DNA from: Thermodesulfobacteriota bacterium | GTDB taxonomy: Bacteria; Desulfobacterota_D; UBA1144; Nemesobacterales; UBA2774 | DNA: 64,000 nucleotides | Direction of reading: 5' to 3' | Assembly: GCA_963422265.1 (NCBI GenBank) | Contig: OY729416.1 | Span: 277,681 to 341,680 of the forward strand | Shown: piece by piece, positions 6,601 through 45,668 of the stretch | Layout of the letters: each line of letters starts with the position of its first letter | Numbering within the stretch: position 1 is the stretch's first letter | Position numbers and translations under genes: made by a program | The notes under the pieces: model-generated | Databases searched by the model: none | What the model was told of the DNA's origin: nothing | The model's input: the letters and a program-made list of their open reading frames with translations, nothing else

Positions 6601-6693
6601 AAAGCTAAAAAAGGTCGGAGAGTAGAAGAAGGGGGATCCTACTCCACGTTTCCATAAGTATGTCGGCAAATGACCCTCCAATCTAGCCAATTA

Positions 6694-20900: not shown

Positions 20901-20962
20901 TTAAATTGTTTAAAAGTTCCTGCCCACTAGTAGGTTGGCACAGGTAGAAAGGAGGAGATTTT

Positions 20963-21232
20963 ATGACTCTTGATAAAGAGGAAAAGGCTAAATTGATAGG
21001 GGAGTTTGCTATAAACGATAGGGATGTTGGCTCGCCTGAAGTGCAGGTCGGGATATTTTCTCGTAGGATTGAATATTTATCCGAGCATATGAAAAAAGCG
21101 CCTAAAGATTTTCATTCGCGTCGAGGGCTTGTTTCCTTAGTCGCCAAAAGGAGAAGGCTTCTTAATTATATAAAAAGGGAAAGACCGGACACGTATCCGG
21201 ATCTTATTCAAAGACTAGGACTGAGAAAATAG
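20963..21232 (+). CDS. rpsO: 30S ribosomal protein S15
   Basis: 89 aa; GSPEVQVGIFSRRIEYLSEHMKKAPKDFHSRRGL. Confidence 0.95.
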   Translation: MTLDKEEKAKLIGEFAINDRDVGSPEVQVGIFSRRIEYLSEHMKKAPKDFHSRRGLVSLVAKRRRLLNYIKRERPDTYPDLIQRLGLRK

Positions 21233-21252
21233 GATTATAAGGAGGAGAAATT

Positions 21253-25742: not shown

Positions 25743-26220
25743 ATCGTCCCGCTAGTATTGTTTTCAGTAGAACATTATAACTAAGGCTGATGCTATTTTC
25801 ATGTCAGCAAGTGAGGAATTATAGCCAAAGGCTACTCTTACAGAAAGGGTTATTCTCGTAAAATTTAAAATAGAGGCATATAGAGGACTGTAACACAATA
25901 TAGCACCGTTTTTCTTACTTTGAGGATATTTTCAGTGAAAACGCGTTACTCTTAAACAACTGCTTGTGTAAGAAGTAGGATTTTCCTTTGGTTAAGATGA
26001 CAAAAGAGGAATCTAGTTTTTTGTTCTTTTATACATATTTGATTTTTATGGGAGATGTGTTGAATTTAGGGTGGAAGGATGGGGTATGATTTGCTCACTT
26101 TAGTGTGGTAAAACGATGAAAATGATAATGATATGGTGGTGGACCCTTAATGAATGTCAGTCCTTTTGACAAAGGCTTAGGAAGTTATTAAAGTAAAAGG
26201 TATTATGATTATAAAAGTTA

Positions 26221-28495: not shown

Positions 28496-31400
28496 GTGAA
28501 ACTGAATGGAGCACCAAATGCGGACGTGACCGTAACAGTCCGTAATAATTTCCCTGATGAAATCACCGTCTCCCCGGCCTCCCTGACCTTTACCACCAGC
28601 GACTGGAATACCCCGCAGAGGGTCACCGTCACCGTCTTGGATAACCAGGTCGATAATGGCGATCAACGTACCATTCTTGTCTGGCATTTGCCGACCGGTG
28701 GTGGCTACGGTTCTCAGCAGAACACTAATATAACAGTGCAATATAACGACAACGACACCGCCGGCGTCACCGTCACCGAGACCGGTGACAGCACTGCCAC
28801 CACCGAAGCCGGCGGCACCGACACCTTCACGGTCGTGCTGAACACCGAGCCGTTAGAGGGTGTCAGAATCGCCGTATCCAGTTCCGACATCAGTGAAGGT
28901 ACGGTTGACAAGAGCAGCCTGACCTTCACCGCAGCCAACTGGGATACGGTACAGACCGTCACCGTCACCGGTCAGGATGACAGCCTGGTTGACGGGGATC
29001 GAGCCTATAACATCGTACTGGCCAAGGTCGTCAGCACTGATACCAACTACCACGGCATTGACCCAGCGGACGTATCGGTGACCAACACCGATGATGACGC
29101 CGGCGTTACGTTATCCAAGAGCAGTGTCACCGTCACCGAAGCCAGTGGCAACAGTAATACCAACACCTACACTGTAGTACTGGACGCCCAACCCTCGGGC
29201 ACCGTCACCGTCACCCTCACCAGCGGCGATACCAGCGTGGCCAGAGTCTCCCCGGCCTCCCTGACCTTTACCACCAGCGACTGGAATACCGCACAGCAAG
29301 TCACCGTCACTGGGGTGGACGACAGCACCGATGAGGACCGCAGCACCACCATCACCCATACAATCAGTGGTGGGGGATACGGCTCAGTGAGCATAGCCGA
29401 CGTCGCCGTCACCCTGACCGATGACGATACCGCCCGCGTCACGCCGCCGAGCAAGCCCACCGGACTCGAGGCAGTGGGGGGCGACAGTCAGGTGACGTTG
29501 ACCTGGAATAATCCGAATAACGCCGCCATCACCGGGTATCAGATCAGGCAGCGGAGTTATGTCAACGGGGCATGGACTAAATTTCCTAAATTTTCTAACA
29601 TAATACCGGGCAGTGATGCCAGCACCACTAGCCACGTGGTGAGTGGTCTGACCAACGGCGTGAGGTATAGTTTCCAAATCCGTGAGATGGTGGGCAAAAA
29701 GGGAGGGAAACCGTCTGAGGCCAAAGCGACACCGGCGGCCCCGCCACCGCCGAAACCGAGCAAGCCCACCGGCCTCAGGACAGTAGCAGGGAACAATCAG
29801 GCGACGTTGATCTGGAATAATCCGAATAACGCCGCCATCACCAAGTATCAGTATAAGCAGTGGAATTCATCGTCTACCGAGAGCGGCGCGAAGTGGGCTG
29901 ACATACCGGGCAGTGATGCGAACACCACCAGCTACGTGGTGAGTGGTCTGACCAACACCTCTGTTATCTATAGATTCCGCATCCGTGCGGTGGCAGGCCC
30001 CTCTGTCGGGCTTCAGTCCAGCTCTGCCGGTGCGATCATTGCGGTACCGCCTGCTGCGCCTGTCGTGACGGCGACGCCGGGCGACGCTCAGGTGAGGTTA
30101 AGTTGGTCGGGGAGCATAGGCTATTATATCACCAGGTATCAGATCAAGCAGTGGACGGGCAGTAGCGAGCCGGCCAATGGCTGGAAGGACATTCCCGGGA
30201 GTCGATCGAGCACCACCAGCCACGTGGTTAGGGGTCTGACCAGCGGCGTGAGTTACAGTTTCCGCATCCGTGCGGTGGCAACATGTAGTTTTAATTCTGG
30301 GAGATTCATAGCTTCTGATTGCAGCGTTGCGGGGACGCCGTCCACTCCCGTCAGTCCGACGCTTGTGCCGGGCAAGCCTGTCGTGGCGCCAATGCCGGGC
30401 GACGCTCAGGTGACGTTGAGTTGGAGTAATCCGAATGATGTTGCCATCACCAAGTATCAGATCAAGCAGTGGACTGGCAGTAGCGAGAGTGGGAGCTGGA
30501 CTGACATATCGGGGAGTGGATCGAGCACCACCAGCCATGTGGTGAGTGGCCTGACCAGCGGCGTGAGGTATAGTTTCCGTATTCGTGCGGTGGCAGGTAC
30601 CAATGTTGCAGGGACGCCGTCCGATCCCGTCAGGGCAGTACTCCTGGACAAGCCTGTCGTCAGTGCCAGTGCGGGCGACACTCTGGTGACGTTGAGTTGG
30701 AGTGATCCGAATGACGATTCCATCACCAGGTATCAGATCAAGCAGTGGACTGGCAGTAGCGAGAGAGGGCGTTGGACTGACATATCGGGGAGTGGATCGA
30801 GCACCACCAGCCTCGTGGTGGGGCGCCTGACCAACGGCGTGAGGTATAGTTTCCGTATCCGTGCAATGGTGGGTCTTTTCCCGGGGGTGGAGTCAGCTTC
30901 CGTCAGTTCGACGCCTGTGCCGGGCAAGCCTGCCGTGACGGCGACGCCGGGCACCGCTCAGGTGACGTTAAGCTGGAGTAATCCGAATGATGCTTCCATC
31001 GCCAGGTATCAGATCAAGCAGTGGACTGGCAGTAGCGAGAGTGGGAGTTGGACTGACATATCGGGGAGTGGGGAGGACACCACCAGCCACGTGGTGAGGG
31101 GTCTGACCAACGGCGTTGAGTATAGTTTCCGTATCCGTGCGGTGACAGGTACCAACGCTTCAGGGACGCCGTCCGATCCCGTCAGTGAGACGCCAGCGGT
31201 ACAGCCGGACAAGCCTGCTGTTACAGCGGCGCCGGCGGGCGACAGTCTGGTGAGGTTGAGTTGGAGTAATCCGAATGACGCTTCCATCACCGGGTATCAG
31301 ATCAAGCGGTGGACTGGCAGTAGCGAGAGTGGGAGTTGGACTGACATATCGGGGAGTGGGAAGGACACGATCACATACACGGTACCGGGTCTGACCAACG

Positions 31401-34400
31401 GCGTTGAGTATAGTTTCCGTATCCGTGCGATGGCAGGTCGTGTTCCAGGGATGGAGTCGGATGTCGCCAGCGCGACGCCTGTGGCAGACAAGCCTATCGT
31501 TACGGCGACGCCGGGCAACGCTCTGGTGACGTTAAGCTGGAGTAATCCGAATGACGCTTCTATCACCGGGTATCAGATCAAGCAGTGGACTGGCAGTAGC
31601 GAGAGTGGGAGTTGGACTGACATATCGGGGAGTGGGGAGGACACCATCAGCCACGTGGTGAGTGGTCTGACCAACGGCGCCAGGTATGGTTTCCGTATCC
31701 GTGCGATGGTAGGCGCTGTTACAAGGACGCCGTCCGATCCCGTCAGTGCGACGCCTGTGTCGCCGCCTGTCGGACTCACGGCGACGCCGGGAGACTCTCA
31801 GGTGACGTTGACCTGGAATAATCCGAACAATCCCACCATCACCGGGTATCAGCTCAAAAAGTATCGTTTCACGATTGAGACCGGTTTTAACGAGGGTTCT
31901 TGGACTGACATACCAGGGAGTGGAAAGGACACCACCAGCTACGTGGTAACGAGTCTGACCAACGGCGCCAGGTATGGTTTCGAGATTCGTGCGGTGGTAG
32001 GCAGTGTTACAGGAGAGGAGTCCGAGTTCGTGCCCGTCACCCTGAGCAGCATCTTCACCATTACCGGGACGGTGACCCAGGGAGAGACACTGACCGCGGA
32101 TACCAGCACGATCTCCGACCCCGACGGCCCGAAGAGTCTGACGTTCACCTACCAATGGAAGCGCGGCGGGACTGCCATAGGCGGTGCCACCGGCCGCACC
32201 TACGTTCTGACGCAGGCCGACGTCGGGAAGGCTATCACCGTCATCGTGAGCTGGACCAATGCTCGTGGGACATTAAAGTCTCTCACCTCGACTGCGACTG
32301 CGAACGTGGCGAACGTGAATGAATCACCAACCGGGGCCGTTACCATCACCGGCACCGCCACCAGGGGACAGACGTTGACTGCGGATACCAGCACGATCGT
32401 CGACCCGGACGGCCCTGCCCGTCTGACGTTCACCTATCAATGGAATCGCGGCGGGACTGCCATAGGCGGTGCCACCGGCCGCACCTACGTTCTGACGCCG
32501 GCCGACGTCGGGAAGGCCATCAGCGTCACCGTGAGCTGGACCGATGCTGGCAGCACCGCGGAGTCATTCATCTCTGCTGCTACCACGAGTGTAACAAACA
32601 CCAACCAATCACCGACCGGGGCCGTCGCCATCACCGGCACCGCCACCCAGAAGCAGACACTGACCGCGGTTACCAGCACGATCGTCGACCCGGACGGCCC
32701 CAGCAGTCTAACGTTCAGCTACCAGTGGAACCGCGATGGGTCTGCCATCAGCAGTGCCACCGGCAGCACCTACGTGCTGACGCAAGCCGACGTCGGGGCC
32801 AAGATCACCGTCACCGTGAGCTGGACCGATGCTGGCAGCACCGCGGAGTCGTTCAACTCTGCTGCGACGGCGAAGGTGGCGAACGTGAATGACCTGCCGA
32901 CCGGGGCCGTCACCATCACCGGCACCGTCACCCAGAAGCAGACGTTGACCGCGGTGACCAGCACGATCTCCGACCCGGACGGCCCGAGTAATTTGGTTTT
33001 TAGCTATCAATGGAAGCGAGATGGGAATAACATCAGCAGCGCCACCGGCCGCACCTACGTTCTGACGCAGGCTGACGTCGGGAAGGCCATCATCGTCACC
33101 GTGAGCTGGACCGATGCTTATGGGGCATCAGAGTCTCTCACCTCTGCTGCGACAGCGAAGGTGGTGAACGTGAACGACCGGCCGACCGGGGCCGTCACCA
33201 TCACCGGCACCCCCATCCAGGGACAGATACTGACCGCGGACACCTCCGGCATTTCCGACCCGGACGTCCCTGACACTGACAGTCTGACCTTTACCTACCA
33301 GTGGACGCGTGGCCCGGATACTGTCAGCCGCACCAGCACTTACACCCTGACGCAGGCTGACGTCGGGGAGATCATCACCGTAGTCGTGGCTTATCAAGAT
33401 GGTGGGCGTAGGCAGCTTTTCCTTGCTAGAACTCCAAAGGTAGCGAACCTAAACGACGCACCGACCGGGGCCGTTACCATCACCGGCACCCCCACCCAGG
33501 GAGAGACACTGACCGCGGTGACCAGCACGATCTCCGACCCGGATGGCCCGAGTGATTTGGTGTTCAGCTACCAGTGGAAGCGCGATAGGATTGCCATCAG
33601 CAGCGCCACCGGCAGCACCTACACCCTGACGCAAGCCGACGTCGGGAAGGCCATCAGCGTCATTGTGAGCTGGACCGATGCTGGCAGCACCGCGGAGACC
33701 CTCACCTCTGTTGCTACCGCGAGTGTAACCAACATAAACGACTCACCGACCGGCAGCGTCACCATCACCGGCACCGTGACCCAGGGCCAGACACTGACCG
33801 CAGACACCTCCGGCATCTCCGACCCCGACGGCCCCGCCAGTCTGACCTTCAGCTACCAATGGAAACGCGATGGGTCTGACATCAGCAGTGCCACCAGTAG
33901 AACCTACATTCTGACGCAAGCCGACGTCGGGAAGGCCATCAGCGTCACCGTCAGCTGGACCGATGCCGGCAGCATCGTGGAGACCCTCACCTCTGCTGCG
34001 ACAGCGAACGTAGCGAACCTAAACGACTCGCCGACCGGTAGCGTCACCATCAGCGGCACGGTGACCCAGGGCCAGACCCTGACCGCAGTGACCAGCACGA
34101 TCGTCGACCCGGACGGCCCGGCCAGTCTGACCTTCAGCTACCAATGGAAACGCGATAGCACTGACATCAGCAGTGCCACCAGTAGAACCTACATTCTGAC
34201 GCAAGCCGACGTCGGGAAGGCCATCACCGTCATCGTGAGTTGGACCGATGCCGGCAGCATCGTGGAGACCCTTACCTCGACTGCGACAGCGAAGGTGGCG
34301 AACATGAATGACCCGCCGACCGGGGCTGTCACCATCAGCGGCACCGTGACCCAGGGCCAGACCCTGACCGCGGTGACCAGCACGATCGTCGACCCCGACG

Positions 34401-37400
34401 GCCCCAGCAGTCTAACCTTCACCTACCAATGGAACCGTGGCGGGAATCCCATCAGCAGCGCCACCGGCAGCACCTACACCCTGACACAAGCCGACGTCGG
34501 TAAGGCCATCAGCGTCATTGTGAGCTGGACCGATGCTGGCAGCACCGCGGAGACCCTCACCTCGGCGGCGACAGCGAACGTAACCAACGCGAACGATCCG
34601 CCGACCGGGGCTGTCACCATCAGCGGCACCGTGACCCAGGGCCAGACACTGACCGCAGACACCTCCGGCATCTCCGACCCCGACGGCCCCAGCAATCTGA
34701 CGTTCACCTACCAATGGAAGCGCGATGGGTCTGACATCAGCAGTGCCACCAGTAGAACCTACATTCTGACGCAAGCCGACGTCGGGAAGGCTATCACCGT
34801 CATCGTGAGTTGGACCGATGCCGGCAGCATCGTGGAGACCCTCACCTCTGCTGCGACAGCGAACGTAGCGAACCTAAACGACTCGCCGACCGGTAGCGTC
34901 ACCATCAGCGGCACGGTGACCCAGGGCCAGACCCTGACCGCAGTGACCAGCACGATCGTCGACCCGGACGGCCCGGCCAGTCTGACCTTCAGCTACCAAT
35001 GGAAACGCGATAGCACTGACATCAGCAGTGCCACCAGTAGAACCTACATTCTGACGCAAGCCGACGTCGGGAAGGCTATCACCGTCATCGTGAGTTGGAC
35101 CGATGCCGGCAGCATCGTGGAGACCCTTACCTCGACTGCGACAGCGAAGGTGGCGAACATGAATGACCCGCCGACCGGGGCTGTCACCATCAGCGGCACC
35201 GTGACCCAGGGCCAGACCCTGACCGCGGTGACCAGCACGATCGTCGACCCCGACGGCCCCAGCAGTCTAACCTTCACCTACCAATGGAACCGTGGCGGGA
35301 ATCCCATCAGCAGCGCCACCGGCAGCACCTACACCCTGACACAAGCCGACGTCGGTAAGGCCATCAGCGTCACCGTGAGTTGGACCGATGCCGGCAGCAT
35401 CGTGGAGACCCTCACCTCGGCGGCGACAGCGAACGTAACCAACGCGAACGATCCGCCGACCGGGGCGGTCACCATCACCGGCACCGTGACCCAGGGCCAG
35501 ACACTGACCGCGGATACCAGCACGATAGTTGACCCGGACGGCCCGGCCAGTCTGACCTTCAGCTACCAATGGAAACGCGATAGCACTGACATCAGCAGTG
35601 CCACCAGTAGAACCTACATTCTGACGCAAGCCGACGTCGGGAAGGCTATCACCGTCATCGTGAGTTGGACCGATGCCGGCAGCATCGTGGAGACCCTCAC
35701 CTCTGCTGCGACAGCGAACGTAGCGAACCTAAACGACTCGCCGACCGGTAGCGTCACCATCAGCGGCACGGTGACCCAGGGCCAGACCCTGACCGCAGTG
35801 ACCAGCACGATCGTCGACCCGGACGGCCCGGCCAGTCTGACCTTCAGCTACCAATGGAAACGCGATAGCACTGACATCAGCAGTGCCACCAGTAGAACCT
35901 ACATTCTGACGCAAGCCGACGTCGGGAAGGCTATCACCGTCATCGTGAGTTGGACCGATGCCGGCAGCATCGTGGAGACCCTTACCTCGACTGCGACAGC
36001 GAAGGTGGCGAACATGAATGACCCGCCGACCGGGGCTGTCACCATCAGCGGCACCGTGACCCAGGGCCAGACCCTGACCGCGGTGACCAGCACGATCGTC
36101 GACCCCGACGGCCCCAGCAGTCTAACCTTCACCTACCAATGGAACCGTGGCGGGAATCCCATCAGCAGCGCCACCGGCAGCACCTACACCCTGACACAAG
36201 CCGACGTCGGTAAGGCCATCAGCGTCACCGTGAGTTGGACCGATGCCGGCAGCATCGTGGAGACCCTCACCTCGGCGGCGACAGCGAACGTAACCAACGC
36301 GAACGATCCGCCGACCGGGGCGGTCACCATCACCGGCACCGTGACCCAGGGCCAGACACTGACCGCGGATACCAGCACGATAGTTGACCCGGACGGCCCG
36401 GCCAGTCTGACCTTCAGCTACCAATGGAAACGCGATAGCACTGACATCAGCAGTGCCACCAGTAGAACCTACATTCTGACGCAAGCCGACGTCGGGAAGG
36501 CTATCACCGTCATCGTGAGTTGGACCGATGCCGGCAGCATCGTGGAGACCCTTACCTCGACTGCGACAGCGAAGGTGGCGAACATGAATGACCCGCCGAC
36601 CGGGGCTGTCACCATCAGCGGCACCGTGACCCAGGGCCAGACCCTGACCGCAGACACCTCCGGCATCTCCGACCCCGACGGCCCCAGCAATCTGACGTTC
36701 ACCTACCAATGGAACCGTGGCGGGAATCCCATCAGCAGCGCCACCGGCAGCACCTACACCCTGACACAAGCCGACGTCGGTAAGGCCATCAGCGTCACCG
36801 TGAGTTGGACCGATGCCGGCAGCATCGTGGAGACCCTCACCTCGGCGGCGACAGCGAACGTAACCAACGCGAACGATCCGCCGACCGGGGCGGTCACCAT
36901 CACCGGCACCGTGACCCAGGGCCAGACACTGACCGCGGATACCAGCACGATAGTTGACCCGGACGGCCCGGCCAGTCTGACCTTCAGCTACCAATGGAAA
37001 CGCGATAGCACTGACATCAGCAGTGCCACCAGTAGAACCTACATTCTGACGCAAGCCGACGTCGGGGCGGCCATCAGCGTCGCCGTCAGCTGGACCGATG
37101 CCGGCAGCATCGTGGAGACCCTCACCTCTGATGCGACAGCGAACGTAGCGAACCTAAACGACTCGCCGACCGGTAGCGTCACCATCAGCGGCACGGTGAC
37201 CCAGGGCCAGACCCTGACCGCAGTGACCAGCACGATCGTCGACCCGGACGGCCCGGCCAGTCTGACCTTCAGCTACCAATGGAAACGCGATAGCACTGAC
37301 ATCAGCAGTGCCACCAGTAGAACCTACATTCTGACGCAAGCCGACGTCGGGGCGGCCATCAGCGTCGCCGTCAGCTGGACCGATGCCGGCAGCATCGTGG

Positions 37401-39310
37401 AGACCCTTACCTCGACTGCGACAGCGAAGGTGGCGAACATGAATGACCCGCCGACCGGGGCTGTCACCATCAGCGGCACCGTGACCCAGGGCCAGACCCT
37501 GACCGCGGTGACCAGCACGATCGTCGACCCCGACGGCCCCAGCAGTCTAACCTTCACCTACCAATGGAACCGTGGCGGGAATCCCATCAGCAGCGCCACC
37601 GGCAGCACCTACACCCTGACACAAGCCGACGTCGGTAAGGCCATCAGCGTCACCGTGAGTTGGACCGATGCCGGCAGCATCGTGGAGACCCTCACCTCGG
37701 CGGCGACAGCGAACGTAACCAACGCGAACGATCCGCCGACCGGGGCGGTCACCATCACCGGCACCGTGACCCAGGGCCAGACACTGACCGCAGACACCTC
37801 CGGCATCTCCGACCCCGACGGCCCCAGCAATCTGACGTTCACCTACCAATGGAAGCGCGATGGGTCTGACATCAGCAGTGCCACCAGTAGAACCTACGTT
37901 CTGACGCAGGCCGACGTCGGGAAGGCCATCAGCGTCATTGTGAGCTGGACCGATGCTGGCAGCACCGCGGAGACCCTCACCTCTGCTGCGACAGCGAACG
38001 TAACCAACGCGAACGATCCGCCGACCGGGGCTGTCACCATCACCGGCACCGTGACCCAGGGCCAGACACTGACCGCGGATACCAGCACGATAGTTGACCC
38101 CGACGGCCCCGCCAATCTGACGTTCACCTACCAATGGAAGCGCGATGGGTCTGACATCAGCAGTGCCACCAGTAGAACCTACGTTCTGACGCAGGCCGAC
38201 GTCGGGAAGGCCATCAGCGTCATTGTGAGCTGGACCGATGCTGGCAGCACCGTGGAGACCCTCACCTCTGCTGCGACAGCGAACGTAACCAACGCGAACG
38301 ATCCGCCGACCGGCAGCGTCACCATCAGCGGCACCGTGACCCAGGGCCAGACCCTGACCGCGGATACCAGCACGATAGTTGACCCCGACGGCCCCGCCAG
38401 TCTGACGTTCACCTACCAATGGAAGCGCGATGGGTCTGACATCAGCAGTGCCACCAGTAGAACCTACATTCTGACGCAAGCCGACGTCGGGAAGGCTATC
38501 ACCGTCATCGTGAGCTGGACCGATGCCGGCAGCATCGTGGAGACCCTTACCTCGGCGGCGACAGCGAAGGTGGTGAACGTGAACGACCCGCCGACCGGCA
38601 GCGTCACCATCACCGGCACCGTGACCCAGGGCCAGACACTGACCGCGGATACCAGCACGATAGTTGACCCCGACGGCCCCGCCAGTCTGACGTTCACCTA
38701 CCAATGGAAGCGCGATGGGTCTGACATCAGCAGTGCCACCAGTAGAACCTACGTTCTGACGCAGGCCGACGTCGGGAAGGCCATCAGCGTCATTGTGAGC
38801 TGGACCGATGCTGGCAGCACCGTGGAGACCCTCACCTCTGCTGCGACAGCGAACGTAACCAACGCGAACGATCCGCCGACCGGCAGCGTCACCATCAGCG
38901 GCACCGTGACCCAGGGCCAGACCCTGACCGCGGATACCAGCACGATAGTTGACCCCGACGGCCCCGCCAATCTGACGTTCACCTACCAATGGAAGCGCGA
39001 TGGGTCTGACATCAGCAGTGCCACCAGTAGAACCTACGTTCTGACGCAGGCCGACGTCGGGAAGGCCATCAGCGTCATTGTGAGCTGGACCGATGCTGGC
39101 AGCACCGTGGAGACCCTCACCTCTGCTGCGACAGCGAACGTAACCAACGCGAACGATCCGCCGACCGGCAGCGTCACCATCAGCGGCACCGTGACCCAGG
39201 GCCAGACCCTGACCGCGGATACCAGCACGATAGTTGACCCCGACGGCCCCGCCAGTCTGACGACCTACCAATGGAAGCGCGATGGGTCTGACATCAGCTG
39301 CCACCAGTAG
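28496..39310 (+). CDS. Giant repetitive surface adhesin-like protein, main 3604-aa ORF: beta-sandwich domains, 11 fibronectin type III domains, then about 25 tandem 95-aa repeats
   Basis: Continuous 10.8-kb ORF. FN3 consensus P..L.A..GD.QVTLSW..PND..ITGYQIKQW......W.DI.GS...TTS..V.GLTNGV.YSFRIRAV. 95-aa unit PTGAVTITGTVTQGQTLTADTS.I.DPDGP..LTF.YQWKR.G..ISSAT..TY.LTQADVGK.I.V.VSWTD.GS..E.L.S.AT..V.N.ND. Confidence 0.8.
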   Translation: MKLNGAPNADVTVTVRNNFPDEITVSPASLTFTTSDWNTPQRVTVTVLDNQVDNGDQRTILVWHLPTGGGYGSQQNTNITVQYNDNDTAGVTVTETGDSTATTEAGGTDTFTVVLNTEPLEGVRIAVSSSDISEGTVDKSSLTFTAANWDTVQTVTVTGQDDSLVDGDRAYNIVLAKVVSTDTNYHGIDPADVSVTNTDDDAGVTLSKSSVTVTEASGNSNTNTYTVVLDAQPSGTVTVTLTSGDTSVARVSPASLTFTTSDWNTAQQVTVTGVDDSTDEDRSTTITHTISGGGYGSVSIADVAVTLTDDDTARVTPPSKPTGLEAVGGDSQVTLTWNNPNNAAITGYQIRQRSYVNGAWTKFPKFSNIIPGSDASTTSHVVSGLTNGVRYSFQIREMVGKKGGKPSEAKATPAAPPPPKPSKPTGLRTVAGNNQATLIWNNPNNAAITKYQYKQWNSSSTESGAKWADIPGSDANTTSYVVSGLTNTSVIYRFRIRAVAGPSVGLQSSSAGAIIAVPPAAPVVTATPGDAQVRLSWSGSIGYYITRYQIKQWTGSSEPANGWKDIPGSRSSTTSHVVRGLTSGVSYSFRIRAVATCSFNSGRFIASDCSVAGTPSTPVSPTLVPGKPVVAPMPGDAQVTLSWSNPNDVAITKYQIKQWTGSSESGSWTDISGSGSSTTSHVVSGLTSGVRYSFRIRAVAGTNVAGTPSDPVRAVLLDKPVVSASAGDTLVTLSWSDPNDDSITRYQIKQWTGSSERGRWTDISGSGSSTTSLVVGRLTNGVRYSFRIRAMVGLFPGVESASVSSTPVPGKPAVTATPGTAQVTLSWSNPNDASIARYQIKQWTGSSESGSWTDISGSGEDTTSHVVRGLTNGVEYSFRIRAVTGTNASGTPSDPVSETPAVQPDKPAVTAAPAGDSLVRLSWSNPNDASITGYQIKRWTGSSESGSWTDISGSGKDTITYTVPGLTNGVEYSFRIRAMAGRVPGMESDVASATPVADKPIVTATPGNALVTLSWSNPNDASITGYQIKQWTGSSESGSWTDISGSGEDTISHVVSGLTNGARYGFRIRAMVGAVTRTPSDPVSATPVSPPVGLTATPGDSQVTLTWNNPNNPTITGYQLKKYRFTIETGFNEGSWTDIPGSGKDTTSYVVTSLTNGARYGFEIRAVVGSVTGEESEFVPVTLSSIFTITGTVTQGETLTADTSTISDPDGPKSLTFTYQWKRGGTAIGGATGRTYVLTQADVGKAITVIVSWTNARGTLKSLTSTATANVANVNESPTGAVTITGTATRGQTLTADTSTIVDPDGPARLTFTYQWNRGGTAIGGATGRTYVLTPADVGKAISVTVSWTDAGSTAESFISAATTSVTNTNQSPTGAVAITGTATQKQTLTAVTSTIVDPDGPSSLTFSYQWNRDGSAISSATGSTYVLTQADVGAKITVTVSWTDAGSTAESFNSAATAKVANVNDLPTGAVTITGTVTQKQTLTAVTSTISDPDGPSNLVFSYQWKRDGNNISSATGRTYVLTQADVGKAIIVTVSWTDAYGASESLTSAATAKVVNVNDRPTGAVTITGTPIQGQILTADTSGISDPDVPDTDSLTFTYQWTRGPDTVSRTSTYTLTQADVGEIITVVVAYQDGGRRQLFLARTPKVANLNDAPTGAVTITGTPTQGETLTAVTSTISDPDGPSDLVFSYQWKRDRIAISSATGSTYTLTQADVGKAISVIVSWTDAGSTAETLTSVATASVTNINDSPTGSVTITGTVTQGQTLTADTSGISDPDGPASLTFSYQWKRDGSDISSATSRTYILTQADVGKAISVTVSWTDAGSIVETLTSAATANVANLNDSPTGSVTISGTVTQGQTLTAVTSTIVDPDGPASLTFSYQWKRDSTDISSATSRTYILTQADVGKAITVIVSWTDAGSIVETLTSTATAKVANMNDPPTGAVTISGTVTQGQTLTAVTSTIVDPDGPSSLTFTYQWNRGGNPISSATGSTYTLTQADVGKAISVIVSWTDAGSTAETLTSAATANVTNANDPPTGAVTISGTVTQGQTLTADTSGISDPDGPSNLTFTYQWKRDGSDISSATSRTYILTQADVGKAITVIVSWTDAGSIVETLTSAATANVANLNDSPTGSVTISGTVTQGQTLTAVTSTIVDPDGPASLTFSYQWKRDSTDISSATSRTYILTQADVGKAITVIVSWTDAGSIVETLTSTATAKVANMNDPPTGAVTISGTVTQGQTLTAVTSTIVDPDGPSSLTFTYQWNRGGNPISSATGSTYTLTQADVGKAISVTVSWTDAGSIVETLTSAATANVTNANDPPTGAVTITGTVTQGQTLTADTSTIVDPDGPASLTFSYQWKRDSTDISSATSRTYILTQADVGKAITVIVSWTDAGSIVETLTSAATANVANLNDSPTGSVTISGTVTQGQTLTAVTSTIVDPDGPASLTFSYQWKRDSTDISSATSRTYILTQADVGKAITVIVSWTDAGSIVETLTSTATAKVANMNDPPTGAVTISGTVTQGQTLTAVTSTIVDPDGPSSLTFTYQWNRGGNPISSATGSTYTLTQADVGKAISVTVSWTDAGSIVETLTSAATANVTNANDPPTGAVTITGTVTQGQTLTADTSTIVDPDGPASLTFSYQWKRDSTDISSATSRTYILTQADVGKAITVIVSWTDAGSIVETLTSTATAKVANMNDPPTGAVTISGTVTQGQTLTADTSGISDPDGPSNLTFTYQWNRGGNPISSATGSTYTLTQADVGKAISVTVSWTDAGSIVETLTSAATANVTNANDPPTGAVTITGTVTQGQTLTADTSTIVDPDGPASLTFSYQWKRDSTDISSATSRTYILTQADVGAAISVAVSWTDAGSIVETLTSDATANVANLNDSPTGSVTISGTVTQGQTLTAVTSTIVDPDGPASLTFSYQWKRDSTDISSATSRTYILTQADVGAAISVAVSWTDAGSIVETLTSTATAKVANMNDPPTGAVTISGTVTQGQTLTAVTSTIVDPDGPSSLTFTYQWNRGGNPISSATGSTYTLTQADVGKAISVTVSWTDAGSIVETLTSAATANVTNANDPPTGAVTITGTVTQGQTLTADTSGISDPDGPSNLTFTYQWKRDGSDISSATSRTYVLTQADVGKAISVIVSWTDAGSTAETLTSAATANVTNANDPPTGAVTITGTVTQGQTLTADTSTIVDPDGPANLTFTYQWKRDGSDISSATSRTYVLTQADVGKAISVIVSWTDAGSTVETLTSAATANVTNANDPPTGSVTISGTVTQGQTLTADTSTIVDPDGPASLTFTYQWKRDGSDISSATSRTYILTQADVGKAITVIVSWTDAGSIVETLTSAATAKVVNVNDPPTGSVTITGTVTQGQTLTADTSTIVDPDGPASLTFTYQWKRDGSDISSATSRTYVLTQADVGKAISVIVSWTDAGSTVETLTSAATANVTNANDPPTGSVTISGTVTQGQTLTADTSTIVDPDGPANLTFTYQWKRDGSDISSATSRTYVLTQADVGKAISVIVSWTDAGSTVETLTSAATANVTNANDPPTGSVTISGTVTQGQTLTADTSTIVDPDGPASLTTYQWKRDGSDISCHQ
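29440..32040 (+). repeat. Array of 11 FN3-domain-coding repeats, about 270-290 bp each, moderately diverged
   Basis: Periodic protein motif in the 28496..39310 ORF. Confidence 0.75.
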
Positions 39311-40140
39311 AACCTACATTCTGACGCAAGCCGACGTCGGGAAGGCTATCACCGTCATCGTGAGCCGCATCGTGGAGACCCTTACCTCGGCGGCGACCGA
39401 AGGTGGTGAACGGAACGACCCGCGACCGGCAGCGTCACCATCACCGGGTGACCCAGGGCCAGACACTGACGGATACCAGCACGATAGTTGACCCCGACGG
39501 CCCCGCCAGTCTGACGTTCACCTACCAATGGAAGCGCGATGGGTCTGACATCAGCAGTGCCACCAGTAGAACCTACGTTCTGACGCAGGCCGACGTCGGG
39601 AAGGCCATCAGCGTCATTGTGAGCTGGACCGATGCTGGCAGCACCGCGGAGACCCTCACCTCTGCTGCGACAGCGAACGTAACCAACGCGAACGATCCGC
39701 CGACCGGGGCTGTCACCATCACCGGCACCGTGACCCAGCAATCTGACGTTCAGCTACCAATGGAAGCGCGATGGGTCTGACATCAGCAGTGCCACCAGTA
39801 GAACCTACGTTCTGACGCAGGCCGACGTCGGGAAGGCCATCAGCGTCATTGTGAGCTGGACCGATGACCGCGGAGACCCTCACCTCTGATGCGACAGCGA
39901 ACGTAACCAACGCGATCCGCCGACCGGGGCGGTCACCATCACCGGCACCGTGACCCAGGGCCAGACACTGACACCTCCGGCATCTCCGACCCCGACGGCC
40001 CCAGCAATCTGACGTTCAGCTACCAATGGAAGCGCGATGGGTCTGACATCAGCAGTGCCACCAGTAGAACCTACGTTCTGACGCAGGCCGACGTCGGGAA
40101 GGCCATCACCGTCACCGTCAGCTGGACCGACAGCGGCGGT
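32040..40140 (+). repeat. Tandem 285-bp (95-aa) repeat array A, about 28 units including 855-bp higher-order repeats that are near-identical at the DNA level
   Basis: Antisense ORFs recur at exact 285- and 855-bp spacing (e.g. 33904, 34759, 35614). Long stretches (33961-34250 versus 34816-35105) are identical. Confidence 0.85.
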
Positions 40141-40254
40141 ACCGCGGAGACCCTCACCTCTGCGGCTACTTCGGTCGCCGGCGTCACGTTATCCACGAGA
40201 GCGGTCACCGTCACCGAAGCCAGTGGCAGCAGTAATACCAACACCTACACCGTA
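39230..40254 (+). pseudogene. Degenerate or collapsed segment of repeat array A: several short ORFs in different frames. Relative to neighbouring copies it differs by many 1-17 nt deletions and almost no substitutions.
   Basis: E.g. cagacactgacacctccggc versus canonical cagacactgaccgcagacacctccggc; tgagccgcatcgtggagaccc versus tgagctggaccgatgccggcagcatcgtggagaccc. Confidence 0.5.
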
Positions 40255-43200
40255 GTGCTCGACACCCAACCCTCGGGCAACGTCACCGTCACGCCCACCA
40301 GCGGCGATAGCGACGTGGCGACCGTATCCCCGGTCTCCCTGACGTTTACCACGAGCAACTGGAGTACGGCACAGATCGTCACCGTCACCGGTGTGGACGA
40401 CAGCAGCGATGGTGATAGAAGTACCACCATCACCCATGCAGCCTCTGGTGGTGGCTACGACTCAGTGGTCATTGCCAGCGTCAGTGTAACGCTGACCGAT
40501 GACGACACCGCCGGTGTCACCGTGTCCGAGAGCGGTGTCACGGTAACCGAAGCCAGTGGCAGCAGTAATACCAACACCTACACCGTAGTACTCAACACCC
40601 GGCCGAGTGGCAACGTCACCGTCACGCCGACCAGCGGCGATACCAATGTGGCGACCGTATCTGGGGCCCTGACCTTTACCACCAGCAACTGGAGTACGGC
40701 ACAGTCCATCACCGTCACCGGTGTGGACGACAGCAGCGATGGTGATAGAAGCACCACCATCACCCATGCAGCCTCTGGCGGCGGCTACAACGCAGTGGTC
40801 ATCTCCGACGTAGCGGTAACGCTGACCGATGACGACACCGCCGGTGTCACCGTGTCCGAGAGCAGCGTCACGGTAACCGAAGCCAGTGGCAGCAGTAATA
40901 CCAACACCTACACCGTAAAACTTAACACCCGGCCGAGTGGCACCGTCACCGTCACGCCCACCAGCGGCGATAGCGACGTGGCGACCGTATCCCCGGTCTC
41001 CCTGACGTTTACCACGAGCAACTGGGGTACGGCACAGTCCATCACCGTCACCGGTGTGGACGACAGCAGCGATGGGGATAGAAGCACCACCATCACCCAT
41101 GCAGCCTCTGGCGGCGGCTACAACGCAGTGGTCATCTCCGACGTAGCGGTAACGCTGACCGATGACGATAACAACTCGCCGACGGGTTCGGTAACCATTA
41201 CTGGGGCGGCGACGCAGGGGCAGAGGCTTACGGCAGATACCAGCACGATCGTTGATCCAGACGGTCCGAGTAATCTGACGTTCAGCTATCAATGGAAGCG
41301 GGGCGGGACTGACATCAGCGGGGCGACCAGTAGCACCTACGTTCTAACACAGGCGGACGTCGGTTCTATGATCACAGTAGTAGTGAGTTGGACGGACAGC
41401 GGTAGTACAGTGGAATCTCTGACCTCTGCTGCTACAGCAAGTGTAGCGAACTTAAACGACTTGCCGACTGGTGCAGTAACCATTACGGGGACGGTGACGC
41501 AGGGGCAGACACTGACCGCGGATACCGGCACGATTGTTGACCCAGACGGTCCGAGTAATCTGACGTTCAGCTATCAATGGAAGCGGGGTGGGACTGATAT
41601 CAACGGGGCGACCAGTAGCACCTACGTTCTGACACAGGCGGACGTAGGTTCTGTGATCACAGTAGTAGTGAGTTGGACGGACGCTGGTGGGGCATCGGAA
41701 TCCCTCACCTCTGCTGCTACAGCAAGTGTGGCAAACACCAACAACTTGCCGACTGGTGCAGTAACCATTACTGGGACGGTGACGCAGGGGCAGACGCTTA
41801 CGGCGGATACCGGCACGATCGTTGATCCAGACGGTCCGAGTAGTCTGACGTTCAGCTATCAGTGGAAGCGAGGTGGGACTGATATCAGCGGGGCGACCAG
41901 TAGCACCTACGTTCTGACACAGGCGGACGTCGGTTCTGTGATCACAGTAGTAGTGAGTTGGACGGACAGCGGTAGTACAGTGGAGACTCTTACCTCTGCT
42001 GCTACAGCAAGTGTAGCGAACGTAAACGACTTGCCGACTGGTGCGGTAACCATCACCGGGACGGCGACCCAGGGCCAGACACTGACCGCGGATACCAGCA
42101 CGATTGTTGACCCAGACGGTCCGAGTAATCTGACGTTCAGCTATCAGTGGAAGCGAGGTGGGACTGACATCAGCGGGGCGACCAGTAGCACCTACGTTCT
42201 GACACAGGCGGACGTCGGTTCTGTGATCACAGTAGTAGTGAGTTGGACGGACAGCGGTAGTACAGTGGAGACTCTTACCTCTGCTGCTACAGCAAGTGTA
42301 GCGAACGTAAACGACTCGCCGACTGGTGCAGTCACCATCACCGGCACGGCGACCCAGGGCCAGACACTGACCGCGGATACCAGCACGATCGTTGATCCAG
42401 ACGGCCCGAGTAATCTGACGTTCAGCTATCAATGGAAGCGAGGTGGGACTGACATCAGCGGCGGCGCCAGTAGCACCTACGTTCTGACACAGGCGGACGT
42501 CGGGGCGGCAATCACCGTCACTGTGAGCTGGACTGACGCTGGTGGGGCATCGGAATCTCTTACCTCTGCTGCTACAGCAAGTGTAGCGAACGTAAACGAC
42601 TTGCCGACTGGTGCGGTAACCATTACGGGGACGGCAACCCAGGGGCAGACACTGACCGCGGATACCAGCACGATTGTTGACCCAGACGGTCCGAGTAATC
42701 TGACGTTCAGCTATCAATGGAAGCGGGGTGGGACTGACATCAGCGGGGCGACCAGTAGCACCTACATTCTGACACAGGCGGACGTCGGTTCTGTGATCAC
42801 AGTAGTAGTGAGTTGGACGGACGCTGGTGGGACATCGGAATCCCTCACCTCTGCTGCTACAGCAAGTGTAGCGAACGTAAACGACTTGCCGACTGGTGCG
42901 GTAACCATTACGGGGACGGCAACCCAGGGGCAGACGCTTACAGCGGATACCGGCACGATCGTTGATCCAGACGGTCCGAGCAGTCTGACGTTCAGCTATC
43001 AATGGAAGCGAGGCGGGACTGATATCAACGGGGCGACCAGTAGCACCTACATTATGACACAGGCGGACGTCGGTTCTGTGATCACAGTAGTAGTGAGTTG
43101 GACGGACAGCGGTAGTACAGTGGAATCTCTGACCTCTGCTGCTACAGCAAGTGTAGCGAACGTAAACGACTCGCCGACTGGTGCGGTAACCATTACGGGG

Positions 43201-45618
43201 ACGGCGACCCAGGGCCAGACACTGACCGCGGATACCGGCACGATTGTTGACCCAGACGGTCCGAGTAATCTGACGTTCAGCTATCAATGGAAGCGAGGCG
43301 GGACTGACATCAGCGGCGCCACTACTAGCACCTACGTTCTGACACAGGCGGACGTAGGTTCTGTGATCACAGTAGTAGTGAGTTGGACGGACGCTGGTGG
43401 GGCATCGGAATCTCTTACCTCGACTGCCACTGCGAAGGTGATTAACATCAGCGGTGCTGACTCTGGCACGATTATTGATGTAGTAGAGGACGGTGGTCGC
43501 AGCATCATCACGGCAACGGTTGACGAGACGGCTGTGAAGCTGACGCTGCCATCTGGACACGGCGTGACGGAGATTGAGTTTTCACCGGCGGCGCCCACTG
43601 TTACTGAGCCGTCGGGCGTGAGCTTTGGGGGTAAACCGTCTTACGTGGATATAGATCTGGACGTGGAGCTCTCGTCATCATCAAGTGCCATCGTCTGTCT
43701 GGAGGAGCCCGAAGAGCTGTCAGGTAATCTATCGGTATATCATCTTGCCGATGTAGAAGGTGCGGGGTGGAGGAAGCTGCCGTCGCCTGCATCGGTGCCC
43801 AGCGGTTATGTATGCGGTAAAACGAGTAGTTTTTCTACTTTTGTATTGGGTTCGCCAAAGCCGACTTTCGGTTCAGAATCCATTGGGGACTATGTCTGGA
43901 CGGTTGGTGTGGAAGTTGTTGATGTTGTTCTACCTGAGGCTACTGGTGGTGACGGTGTTATTACCTACAGTCTGAGACCGTCTCTACCATTGGATCTTAA
44001 GTTTAATGATGATTCTCCTCGCGCTATCACTGGCAAGCCGACTGAGGCGTTAGCTAAGACGAAGTTCACCTACAAGGCTGAGGACGTAGATGGCGATACA
44101 AGTGAGTTGTCATTTAGCATAACGGTTCGTGCAGCCGAGGAAAAGGAGCGAGCGCGTGTTCTTTCTGTAGTGTTAGCTTCTTTTGGACGGGCAGCTGCAA
44201 CCGGAGCGGTGGACGTAATAGGTGAACGTTTTGTTTCTTCTTCTTCTCTGGCAGGTAGTCCTAAATTGACATTGGGTGGTGTTTCTATGACATCGTTTGA
44301 CACTCGTTCTGTGGCAGGAGCTGTGGATGGGGTGTTGGGTCTGAGTGGTGGTTCAGATATTGAATTGTTGGAGGGTTTAGATCGAGAGCCTGTTGAGTTA
44401 CGGCGTGTTTCTGGGAGGGATTTGTTTGCGCAGAGCGAATTTTCTATTCCTTTGAGTAGTAGTGGTGATATGGGAGGAGTGATGCGAGGTTGGACGTTAT
44501 GGGGCAGTGGTGCGGGTAGTGGATTTTCTGGTAGTAATTTGGATGGAGATATAGATACAGAGGGTGAGTTGTATACGGGCTACATGGGATTGGACTATAG
44601 GTTTGGTAATAGGGGTTTGGCGGGAGTAGCGATATCTCGTAGTGTTGGAGAGGTGGACTATGAGGTGGATGGTAGCTTTCATCTTATGGGTGGAGAGACA
44701 GGTAGTATCCGAGGGGAGGTAGATTTGGAGTTGACGAGCGTTCTTCCATATGCGCACTACACTATTCGTCCTGGTCTTAGTATATGGGGTTTGTTTGGAG
44801 CGGGTATAGGCGATATTGAGTTGGAGGATGGGGCAGGAGAAGTAGAGGCGGACGTAAATATGCTGATGGTAGCGTTGGGAGTGCGTCAGGAGTTGGCTAG
44901 ATGGGGAGATATAGATTTTGGGTTAAAGAGTGATGGTTTTGCAGTGCAGTTAAAGACAGAGGGGGTGGAAGGTCTTTCTGGTGTTAGTGGAGTAGCGCGT
45001 CGTTTGCGATTAGGTTTAGAGATGAGCCGTGACGTGTATGTGACAGGAGATTCTTTGTTGCTACCAAGTGTGGAGATAGGGGGGCGATGGGACGGCGGAG
45101 ATGCGGATAGTGGAGTAGGTATGGAGGTAGGCGGAGGTATAGAGTATGTTCATAGAGGTTTGGGTTTGAGCGTGGAGGTTCGAGGGAGGTATTTGTTGTT
45201 TCATGAGGAGTCTGAGTTTGAGGATTGGGGAGGTAGTTTTTCATTGCGGATGGGTGATGGAGTTCGGGGGCGTGGATTGTGGTTGAAGTTTGAGCCTGAG
45301 TGGGGTGAGGTAGCGAGTGGAGTAGAGCGAATGTGGCGAGGTGAGGTTGATAGTGGGTTAGGAGTAGGGAAGCGGGGTTTATCTCCTGGGCGTGTGAAGT
45401 TTGACGTTGGATATGGTATGGAGACGCGAGGTAGTGGGTGGCTTGTAACGCCGTATAGTGGCGTATCTATTATGAGGGAGGGGGAGCGCGAGTATAGGTT
45501 GGGTGGCAAGGTAGGTGTAGGGGAGTGGATGGATATAAGTTTGGAGGGGGAGCGTCGAGAGGTTTCTAATGGAGTTGTGGATCACGGAATACTATTATGG
45601 TGGAAGCTGTTATTGTAG
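40255..45618 (+). CDS. C-terminal 1787-aa ORF of the giant adhesin: 3 beta-sandwich domains, 8 more 95-aa repeats (array B), a cadherin-like domain and a C-terminal autotransporter-like beta-barrel
   Basis: Frame is open from 39891; the first start codon is a GTG at 40255, inside a domain. The tail GWTLWGSGAGSGFSGSNLDGDIDTEGELYTGYMGLDYRFGNRGLAGVAISRS has a type Va beta-domain-like pattern. YSLRPSLPLDLKFNDDSPRAITGKPTE..FTYKAEDVDGDTS resembles He_PIG/dystroglycan-type cadherin domains. Confidence 0.75.
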   Translation: MLDTQPSGNVTVTPTSGDSDVATVSPVSLTFTTSNWSTAQIVTVTGVDDSSDGDRSTTITHAASGGGYDSVVIASVSVTLTDDDTAGVTVSESGVTVTEASGSSNTNTYTVVLNTRPSGNVTVTPTSGDTNVATVSGALTFTTSNWSTAQSITVTGVDDSSDGDRSTTITHAASGGGYNAVVISDVAVTLTDDDTAGVTVSESSVTVTEASGSSNTNTYTVKLNTRPSGTVTVTPTSGDSDVATVSPVSLTFTTSNWGTAQSITVTGVDDSSDGDRSTTITHAASGGGYNAVVISDVAVTLTDDDNNSPTGSVTITGAATQGQRLTADTSTIVDPDGPSNLTFSYQWKRGGTDISGATSSTYVLTQADVGSMITVVVSWTDSGSTVESLTSAATASVANLNDLPTGAVTITGTVTQGQTLTADTGTIVDPDGPSNLTFSYQWKRGGTDINGATSSTYVLTQADVGSVITVVVSWTDAGGASESLTSAATASVANTNNLPTGAVTITGTVTQGQTLTADTGTIVDPDGPSSLTFSYQWKRGGTDISGATSSTYVLTQADVGSVITVVVSWTDSGSTVETLTSAATASVANVNDLPTGAVTITGTATQGQTLTADTSTIVDPDGPSNLTFSYQWKRGGTDISGATSSTYVLTQADVGSVITVVVSWTDSGSTVETLTSAATASVANVNDSPTGAVTITGTATQGQTLTADTSTIVDPDGPSNLTFSYQWKRGGTDISGGASSTYVLTQADVGAAITVTVSWTDAGGASESLTSAATASVANVNDLPTGAVTITGTATQGQTLTADTSTIVDPDGPSNLTFSYQWKRGGTDISGATSSTYILTQADVGSVITVVVSWTDAGGTSESLTSAATASVANVNDLPTGAVTITGTATQGQTLTADTGTIVDPDGPSSLTFSYQWKRGGTDINGATSSTYIMTQADVGSVITVVVSWTDSGSTVESLTSAATASVANVNDSPTGAVTITGTATQGQTLTADTGTIVDPDGPSNLTFSYQWKRGGTDISGATTSTYVLTQADVGSVITVVVSWTDAGGASESLTSTATAKVINISGADSGTIIDVVEDGGRSIITATVDETAVKLTLPSGHGVTEIEFSPAAPTVTEPSGVSFGGKPSYVDIDLDVELSSSSSAIVCLEEPEELSGNLSVYHLADVEGAGWRKLPSPASVPSGYVCGKTSSFSTFVLGSPKPTFGSESIGDYVWTVGVEVVDVVLPEATGGDGVITYSLRPSLPLDLKFNDDSPRAITGKPTEALAKTKFTYKAEDVDGDTSELSFSITVRAAEEKERARVLSVVLASFGRAAATGAVDVIGERFVSSSSLAGSPKLTLGGVSMTSFDTRSVAGAVDGVLGLSGGSDIELLEGLDREPVELRRVSGRDLFAQSEFSIPLSSSGDMGGVMRGWTLWGSGAGSGFSGSNLDGDIDTEGELYTGYMGLDYRFGNRGLAGVAISRSVGEVDYEVDGSFHLMGGETGSIRGEVDLELTSVLPYAHYTIRPGLSIWGLFGAGIGDIELEDGAGEVEADVNMLMVALGVRQELARWGDIDFGLKSDGFAVQLKTEGVEGLSGVSGVARRLRLGLEMSRDVYVTGDSLLLPSVEIGGRWDGGDADSGVGMEVGGGIEYVHRGLGLSVEVRGRYLLFHEESEFEDWGGSFSLRMGDGVRGRGLWLKFEPEWGEVASGVERMWRGEVDSGLGVGKRGLSPGRVKFDVGYGMETRGSGWLVTPYSGVSIMREGEREYRLGGKVGVGEWMDISLEGERREVSNGVVDHGILLWWKLLL
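41160..43440 (+). repeat. Tandem 285-bp repeat array B (8 units). Same protein repeat as array A but with a different synonymous codon set.
   Basis: E.g. ccgaccggggccgtcaccatcaccggcacc (A) versus ccgactggtgcggtaaccattacggggacg (B); both encode PTGAVTITGT. Confidence 0.8.
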
Positions 45619-45633
45619 AAAGAATAAAGATTA

Positions 45634-45668
45634 AATCCCCCCCCCTTCCCTTTACAAAAGGGGGGATT
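45634..45668 (+). terminator. GC hairpin aatccccccccc...ggggggatt just after the giant gene stop. The loop is long and no U-tract follows.
   Basis: C9 at 45637-45645 and G6 at 45660-45665. Confidence 0.3.

Follow-up and report, generated by a model that had tools for sequence, protein, structure and literature searches.

Two arrays of one 95-residue unit in different codon dialects within a putative giant autotransporter adhesin gene of a Dadabacteria-like bacterium

The window analysed here, a stretch of 64,000 nucleotides (nt) of contig OY729416.1 (assembly GCA_963422265.1, positions 277,681 to 341,680), carries on its + strand a giant autotransporter-type adhesin gene (26270..45618) of ~19 kb, with ~6,450 codons if intact. 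The gene is represented by open reading frame (ORF) fragments at 26270-26932, 26811-27167, 27061-28251, 28496-39310 and 40255-45618, which continue one protein in shifted frames. Two arrays of a 95-amino-acid (aa) unit, referred to as arrays A and B, both lie inside this one frameshifted gene and not in two genes, and they write the same unit in different codon sets. From the N terminus onward, a predicted signal peptide and ~9 Calx-like repeats come first, then nine FN3 domains and array A; three further Calx-like repeats separate A from array B, which is followed by a putative immunoglobulin-like (Ig) region and an autotransporter barrel. The product is predicted to be a giant surface adhesin, exported by means of a Sec signal peptide and the C-terminal barrel. 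The composition of the modules is given below as GC3 (G+C at third codon positions) and as C3 and G3 (the fractions of third positions occupied by C and G; T3 and A3 likewise).

Both arrays had been recognized in the first-pass annotation, at 32.0-40.1 and 41.2-43.4 kb, and both were recovered by Tandem Repeats Finder (TRF) and by in-frame extraction of the units. TRF placed one 285-bp array at 32055-39738 (27 copies) and a second at 41170-43421 (7.9 copies), and the units taken in frame were 25 intact ones for array A (32042..39160; GC3 0.80, C3 0.53) and eight for array B (41179..43458; GC3 0.60, C3 0.28). Unit A05 measures 279 bp and the other intact units 285 bp. In both arrays, the unit scores above the curated threshold as an A9/IG_AIR9 domain (PF23197, 36.5 bits in A and 40.9 bits in B, cut-off 27.5), and the array B entry reached 106.9 bits against the NCBIfam ZirU family (NF040485, cut-off 100). 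The A9 unit is Ig-like and also resembles Ig-like domains of phage tail proteins.

The putative signal peptide MIPRQHLRRLAATLGLIFFIICVLPGTAQA and the ~9 Calx-beta-like repeats of ~110 aa occupy 26270..29449 (GC3 0.63-0.71, C3 0.43-0.53); judged by eye only, the n-region of the signal peptide is basic and its core hydrophobic, and it carries an AQA site. Within 26330-29460, the Calx-like region consists of three super-repeats of ~1 kb with three domains each, copies 2 and 3 being 95% identical. The FN3 array (29450..32041; GC3 0.66, C3 0.29-0.32, G3 0.34-0.38) has a TRF period of 276 and matches PF00041 above its curated threshold (260.7 bits over nine stretches). Between the two arrays lie four eroded units of array A, A26-A29 (39161..40165), recognized by alignment to the intact units and marked by many deletions of 2-50 bp, and then three 330-bp Calx-like repeats detected by TRF (40166..41178; GC3 0.75, C3 0.56). 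The Calx-beta profile PF03160 reached at best 17.4 bits (cut-off 27), in the N-terminal repeats, and found no match in the 40.1-41.2 kb block, so that "Calx-like" is used here as a label only. The Pfam family fn3_6 matched the N-terminal repeats weakly, under its threshold, and both PF03160 and PF17766 are annotated on some homologues.

At the 3' end, a linker and putative Ig region with a weak Pfam match to He_PIG (43459..44400) opens the lineage-conserved C-terminal cassette, and the beta-barrel translocator follows at 44401..45615 (Pfam PF03797; C3 0.00-0.07). The barrel scored 28.7 bits when the 405 C-terminal residues were used alone, above the gathering cut-off of 26, and 25.1 bits, just under it, inside a 719-aa query. 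A sequence search of the barrel against the PDB gave no match, and fold comparison alone gave matches: the AlphaFold2 model is all-beta at low confidence (pLDDT 57), and its top Foldseek matches in the PDB were the barrels of Hbp, BrkA, AIDA-I, NalP and EspP (E ~5e-6, TM ~0.5). The protein ends in ...HGILLWWKLLL and lacks the terminal aromatic residue; its relatives P0030 and P0001 terminate in F.

The difference in codon sets that had been read from the two arrays was borne out by counting. Third positions are C 0.53, G 0.27, T 0.13 and A 0.07 in array A, and C 0.28, G 0.32, T 0.26 and A 0.15 in array B; GC3 per unit runs from 0.70 to 0.86 in A and from 0.57 to 0.63 in B, without overlap, while GC at positions 1 and 2 is equal between the arrays. 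Array A had been described as almost exclusively C-ending, which overstates the counted 53%. Among single codons, the fractions in A and B are 0.75 and 0.34 for ACC, 0.63 and 0.18 for GGC, 0.06 and 0.44 for GGT, 0.41 and 0.10 for GTC, 0.07 and 0.44 for GTA, 0.42 and 0.04 for GCC, 0.34 and 0 for CCC, and 0.94 and 0.50 for TAC. Of the codons that the first-pass annotation had listed as typical, ACC, GGC and GTC are thus indeed enriched in A relative to B, as are GGT and GTA in B, but ACT makes up just 16% of the threonine codons of B, and GAT is not typical of it, GAC being the chief aspartate codon in both arrays (0.63 in A, 0.72 in B). The contrast exceeds chance, since at 74 degenerate codons where the two consensuses encode the same residue, A ends in C and B does not in 23 cases, and the reverse holds in one (binomial p = 3e-6).

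Despite these codon sets, the arrays share ancestry at the level of DNA, as indicated by a nucleotide identity of 0.74 and by codon identity above what saturation would leave. Protein identity between A and B units has a median of 0.77, close to the ~75% reported earlier, and the consensuses agree at 76 of 95 residues and 218 of 285 bases, with 46 of the 67 differences at position 3. The Nei-Gojobori method (NG86) applied to the two consensuses gave a synonymous divergence (dS) of 1.15 and a nonsynonymous divergence (dN) of 0.125. Where the residue is the same, 0.53 of the codons are identical, against 0.37 expected from independent draws, and the arrays share 22 exact 30-mers, the longest exact stretch being 39 bp. 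Synonymous sites are therefore not saturated, contrary to what had been supposed. Nor is each array homogeneous within itself: the median dS within either array is 0.29, and on average ~21% separates the edge units A01-A06 from the core of array A, with identities of 0.76-0.84 and a median of 0.79. In that core (A07-A25), three unit subtypes make up a three-unit higher-order repeat of 855 bp, and some units are identical (A11 = A14, and A12 = A15 = A20, within 34031-37735), which indicates that the newest expansions of array A copied three-unit blocks. Array B holds zero identical copies, its units being 5-18% apart.

The history of the units was read from a neighbour-joining tree that included units of related genes (described below). 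All B units form one clade and A07-A25 another, with A01-A06 and the units of related genes basal to them, a topology that shows two separate expansions of old paralogous unit lineages. The phylogeny of units that had been suggested as a check thus upholds ancient paralogs that expanded independently, whereas separate origins, the other possibility raised at first pass, conflict with the 74% nucleotide identity and the codon identity above saturation. The direction of change was obtained by a parsimony count on consensus sequences, with A01-A06 and the units of L001 and L082 as outgroup. It assigned 28 third-position changes to the stem of B and four to the stem of A. Of the 28 on the B stem, 21 are losses of C (eight C>T, eight C>G and five C>A); by class, 18 are strong-to-weak and two weak-to-strong, a host-directed excess of the kind expected of partly ameliorated DNA, although counted by parsimony and not model-based. 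Unit B05, basal within B, has an intermediate C3 of 0.37 and keeps patches of sites in the state of A. Array B is therefore the derived array: starting from a C-rich ancestor that resembled A, it gave up C at third positions and shifted toward the local C-poor composition. When rare variants within the arrays were counted as a sign of ongoing mutation bias, array A had too few of them to judge by and array B gave no consistent direction.

The contrast between the two arrays is one part of a set of codon dialects that extends over the whole gene. C3 is 0.43-0.56 in the Calx-like blocks, ~0.30 in FN3, 0.53 in array A, 0.28 in array B and 0.06 in the barrel, and spans ~0.70 to 0.00 in one reading frame, the extremes being 0.55-0.70 in Calx-like modules and 0.00-0.07 in the barrel. 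The steps are sharp and sit on the module borders, within ~60 bp: at 41170, C3 drops from 0.55 to 0.17-0.28 in ~60 bp, and like steps are found at ~29450 and 32040. Only the transition from array B to the barrel is gradual, C3 falling from 0.25 to <0.1 across 43459..44400. The signal-peptide region, which is not repeated, has a GC3 of 0.70; the repeated modules range over GC3 0.60-0.81, as against 0.36-0.50 in the unique C-terminal part. In the barrel, the codons GTC, CTC, TCC and CCC are all absent. The coding strand of 44101-45615 contains 10.6% C, with a GC skew of ~+0.46, and the contig L001 is alike C-poor at 1-1320 and 6000-7667. This depletion goes well past the skew of the neighbouring + strand genes (C3 0.13-0.23).

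The host genome has 44% GC and a GC3 of ~0.44, with host genes at GC3 0.37-0.49. Its + strand genes show G3 > C3 and T3 > A3, and its - strand genes the reverse; array A, with a C3 of 0.53, opposes this skew, and array B and the barrel follow it. The genes flanking the giant gene encode IF-2, PNPase, MiaA, ResA, NrfF/cytochrome c biogenesis-like proteins, ApbC and NuoM, and two of them that are usually highly expressed are low in C3 (IF-2 0.14, PNPase 0.15). ApbC is at most 78% identical to proteins of metagenome-assembled genomes (MAGs) labelled Candidatus Dadabacteria or Thermodesulfobacteriota, and the host is a Dadabacteria-like bacterium. Among 80 ApbC loci of relatives, none carried the giant gene beside ApbC.

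Genes of the same kind were found in other assemblies, and they combine homologous modules differently. A related contig of 1.78 Mb holds three paralogs (P0002, P0003 and P0004) with C-terminal cassettes 92-98% identical in aa and with different passengers, P0004 matching array B nearly unit for unit. The first 300 residues of the C-terminal cassette in the window (43459-45615) match P0003 without a difference, but alignment columns 421-480 are nearer to P0002, which suggests gene conversion among the paralogs. The 7.8-kb contig L001 carries two tandem paralogous giant autotransporter genes and is 93.6% identical in nt to the window from 43546 onward, barrel included. Its composition is split like that of the window, a passenger with C3 0.5-0.7 and a barrel with C3 0.04-0.07 being joined in one ORF, and its single-copy A9 unit has a GC3 of 0.77.

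A further relative, L082, comes from a 2.1-Mb contig (ENA ERZ21742360 contig_22) of a genome with 57% GC, where the flanking genes have GC3 0.63-0.68; that genome is probably a gammaproteobacterium, judging from its FeoB, which best matches Gammaproteobacteria (65-73% identity). The giant autotransporter of L082 has a poly-C tract, leader, signal peptide and Calx-like/A9/FN3 modules homologous to those described here, in the C-rich dialect, and its N-terminus is homologous to that of the window gene. The cassette of L082 is 85% identical in nt to L001 over 2.4 kb and 75-86% identical to the window; the block between arrays A and B (40166..41178) shares 85.8% nt identity with it over 993 bp, and the region 26270..29449 is 72-80% identical to L001 and L082. 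The barrel that goes with this cassette in L082 is another one, with 34% aa identity. The gene is thus atypical in composition, and it has close relatives at the DNA level in a genome whose composition differs; these are features by which horizontally acquired DNA is recognized. Together with the sharp C3 steps at module borders, the recombination of modules in paralogs and other genomes agrees with the view, put forward at first pass, of a mosaic, module-shuffled gene. Within the L082 gene (10001-18877), the dialect shifts from C3-rich in the first ~1,400 codons to G3-rich with GC3 ~0.9.

Upstream of the gene, a poly-C tract read directly as C22 (26221..26242, + strand) lies 27 nt before the TTG start. 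Tracts in the same place measure C18 in L001 (2050-2067) and C27 in L082 (9947-9973), and in all three loci the tract is followed directly by the same 17 bases, GAAATTCCTGTCCGGCA. The similarity of the window to the L001 and L082 loci starts exactly at the poly-C tract, and a sigma-70-like sequence, known from a consensus match only, lies just 5' of it (26166-26194). A homopolymer tract near the 5' end whose length varies among homologues is the pattern of a contingency locus, with the proviso that assemblies leave homopolymer lengths uncertain. The tract of the window gene probably acts in the 5' leader as a slipped-strand element for phase variation. A scan of metagenome contigs for the junction motif between poly-C and leader found no match. 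In L082, ~6 copies of a tandem 11-bp repeat (GCGCAGGGACG, 9855-9946) stand upstream of the tract.

A modular patchwork whose parts have different residence histories best explains what was observed here, namely the difference in codons between the arrays, the abrupt borders, the two separate expansions, the polarity of the changes and the cassettes common to other genomes, and we put the probability that this accounts for the A/B contrast at about 65%. Amelioration (residence time), a direction of horizontal transfer, an adhesin function and phase variation are inferred. According to this explanation, the poly-C tract would probably switch the expression of the giant adhesin, the C-terminal cassette would be lineage-specific and written in host-like, C-poor codons, and the passenger modules (Calx-like, FN3, A9/Ig) would recombine from paralog to paralog and from genome to genome. 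The ancestral 95-aa unit would have been in a C-rich dialect, fitting a higher-GC genome, which array A, both Calx-like blocks and the 5' end would retain, array A having been enlarged lately by duplications of 855-bp blocks. Array B would descend from an older branch of this unit lineage that stayed longer in a low-GC, C-poor mutational background, here or in a paralog, where T, G and A would have replaced roughly half of its third-position C before it expanded independently. A longer stay in a low-GC background would be the most economical cause of the C loss in B. A bolder extension, which we regard as tentative, concerns the 5' part of the gene, from the poly-C switch and leader through the signal peptide to the C-rich Calx-like/A9/FN3 modules. 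It takes this part for a mobile passenger cassette that moves across phyla and GC contents, here between a Dadabacteria-like lineage and what is probably a gammaproteobacterium, and is grafted onto lineage-specific barrels, so that the dialect of each module would record its source and age.

Several points weigh against the patchwork explanation. No donor more than 90% identical to array A was found, and the nearest known units are ~80-82% identical in nt, so that a "recent import" of array A is argued from composition only. The modules shared with L082 have C3 0.44-0.64, as against 0.24-0.43 in the genes of the L082 genome itself, which is thus not established as the source, and its taxonomy is based on the one gene FeoB. 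Modules of the C-rich dialect alternate with intermediate ones along the gene (Calx, FN3, A, Calx, B), which calls for several events, and the paralogs P0002-P0004 were compared as proteins only. The frameshifts and eroded units could be assembly errors, leaving the exact copy number uncertain. In a protein search with three A units, no relative exceeded 64% identity, and scans of genome contigs and of metagenome contigs for the C-terminal cassette gave no match.

The same contrast could have arisen in place, without any foreign source, if frequent unequal exchange and GC-biased gene conversion push the third positions of the large array A to G/C or hold them there and the less active array B relaxes to the genomic mean. 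The identical copies in array A imply that it is recombining now, and the higher GC3 of all repeated modules relative to the unique C-terminal part is what such conversion would produce. We nevertheless consider this unlikely, as the stem of A carries just four third-position changes, without an excess of weak-to-strong ones, and the shift lies on the branch of B; moreover, the non-repeated signal-peptide region and the single-copy A9 unit of L001 are as C-rich, TRF finds the FN3 array less homogeneous than array B, whose GC3 is nevertheless lower, and the bias is toward C specifically and not toward G+C. Selection on codons is a still weaker candidate, either because C-ending codons would be optimal for a huge protein rich in Thr, Gly, Val and Ser, or because B would have been recoded to suppress A/B recombination that deletes the Calx-like block between the arrays. 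It would fit a nucleotide identity (74%) that is low for proteins 77-80% identical, with most consensus differences at third positions. However, the usually highly expressed genes of the window, IF-2 and PNPase, shun C-ending codons, a single protein whose two halves make opposite choices cannot be optimal in each, and the changes in B approach the composition that local mutation favours, as they would do in the absence of selection. As for suppressed recombination, the exact matches of up to 39 bp and the 22 shared 30-mers suffice for RecA-type exchange.

An assembly chimera, in which a low-GC chromosome took in reads of a higher-GC organism that carries a repeat protein of similar kind, is the least credible of the alternatives. 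Long near-identical repeats are hard to assemble, and the frameshifts and a garbled stretch of 1 kb do lie in this gene, the flanking genes being clean; but reading frames and domain phase run on across every composition border, both ends of the gene join low-GC flanks, the independent assembly L001 has the same C-rich passenger fused to the same C-poor barrel in one ORF, and three paralogs of the same architecture occur on the 1.78-Mb contig.

The frameshifts themselves are located in part. Indels of 1 bp were placed at 28094, 28107 and 28393 by comparison with a 95%-identical internal copy (28400-29460), and more frame shifts lie near 26.88 and 27.12 kb. Single-base frameshifts occur only in the 5' 2.2 kb of the gene, and the three exactly located ones are outside homopolymers. 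The first stop codon (39308-39310) was created by the first deletion among the eroded units, where anchor spacings are 282, 257, 232 and 266 bp, as against the normal 285. Units A26-A29 show deletions of 2-50 bp and zero insertions, and the 7 kb of near-identical units upstream of them are fully in frame. A sequencing-error problem across the whole window was rejected because the flanking genes are intact. The giant gene is either decaying or badly polished, and the stretch 39161-40165 is either real decay or a garbled consensus.

Among known systems, type Va autotransporters (AIDA-I, Ag43, BrkA/Hbp/EspP) resemble this gene in their long passenger and C-terminal beta-barrel and in the N-terminal signal peptide, which is predicted here, and mosaic passengers and phase variation are known among them. 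They differ in that the passenger here consists of ~50 tandem beta-sandwich domains (Calx-like, FN3, A9) and not of a beta-helix, that its ~6,450 residues are far above classical members, and that the last residue is Leu in place of the usual aromatic one. SiiE, LapA/LapF, Marinomonas MpIBP and Ebh are likewise encoded by very long genes with tens of near-identical beta-sandwich repeats of ~100 aa. Such repeats act as extenders or adhesive stalks that grow and shrink by unequal recombination; most of these adhesins leave the cell by type I secretion or are anchored by sortase, and a single repeat type written in a single codon dialect is found in each, whereas the gene in the window has an autotransporter barrel and the same domain in two dialects. 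The 95-aa unit scores over both curated thresholds for the A9 domain of plant and trypanosome AIR9 and for the ZirU family; AIR9 is a eukaryotic microtubule-associated protein, with which the domain fold is in common, but not function or context.

The amelioration of horizontally acquired DNA, reportedly described by Lawrence and Ochman in 1997, resembles the pattern seen here in that an atypical composition decays toward that of the host; it differs in that several stages of decay stand side by side in one reading frame here. The contingency and mosaic surface genes of Neisseria, Haemophilus and Bordetella also show module swaps and a variable-length poly-C before a surface-protein gene. They differ from the present case in that the poly-C cassette here is common to genomes of 44% and 57% GC, probably of different phyla. 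Literature searches about adhesins of Dadabacteria, A9 domains in bacteria and autotransporters of mosaic structure found nothing specific. The locus is probably a fairly ordinary but clear case of module shuffling and horizontal transfer, a mosaic and probably phase-variable adhesin gene of known type.

As such, it offers an unusually clear example of how a giant surface-protein gene is assembled, with "fresh" and "aged" copies of one domain adjacent to each other. Dadabacteria are known chiefly from MAGs. If the reading of the 5' part as a mobile cassette is true, one reading frame would hold a datable series of transfers, and such genes could trace and roughly date the exchange of adhesion modules among co-living uncultured bacteria. 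Composition-based tools would label most of the gene foreign and its 3' end native, and the frameshifts show that genes of this type need a read-level check before annotation.

Just downstream of the giant gene of L082, at 19849-21264, lies a DDE transposase gene. Directly 3' of the stop codon of the window gene, a terminator-like hairpin of C9 and G6 (45637..45666, + strand) was found, which a scan flagged as terminator-like on the opposite strand, and a comparable C9/G10 pair follows the homologue in L001. In L001 (1-2270), the intergenic region after the first gene and the sequence that follows the window gene are 93% identical.

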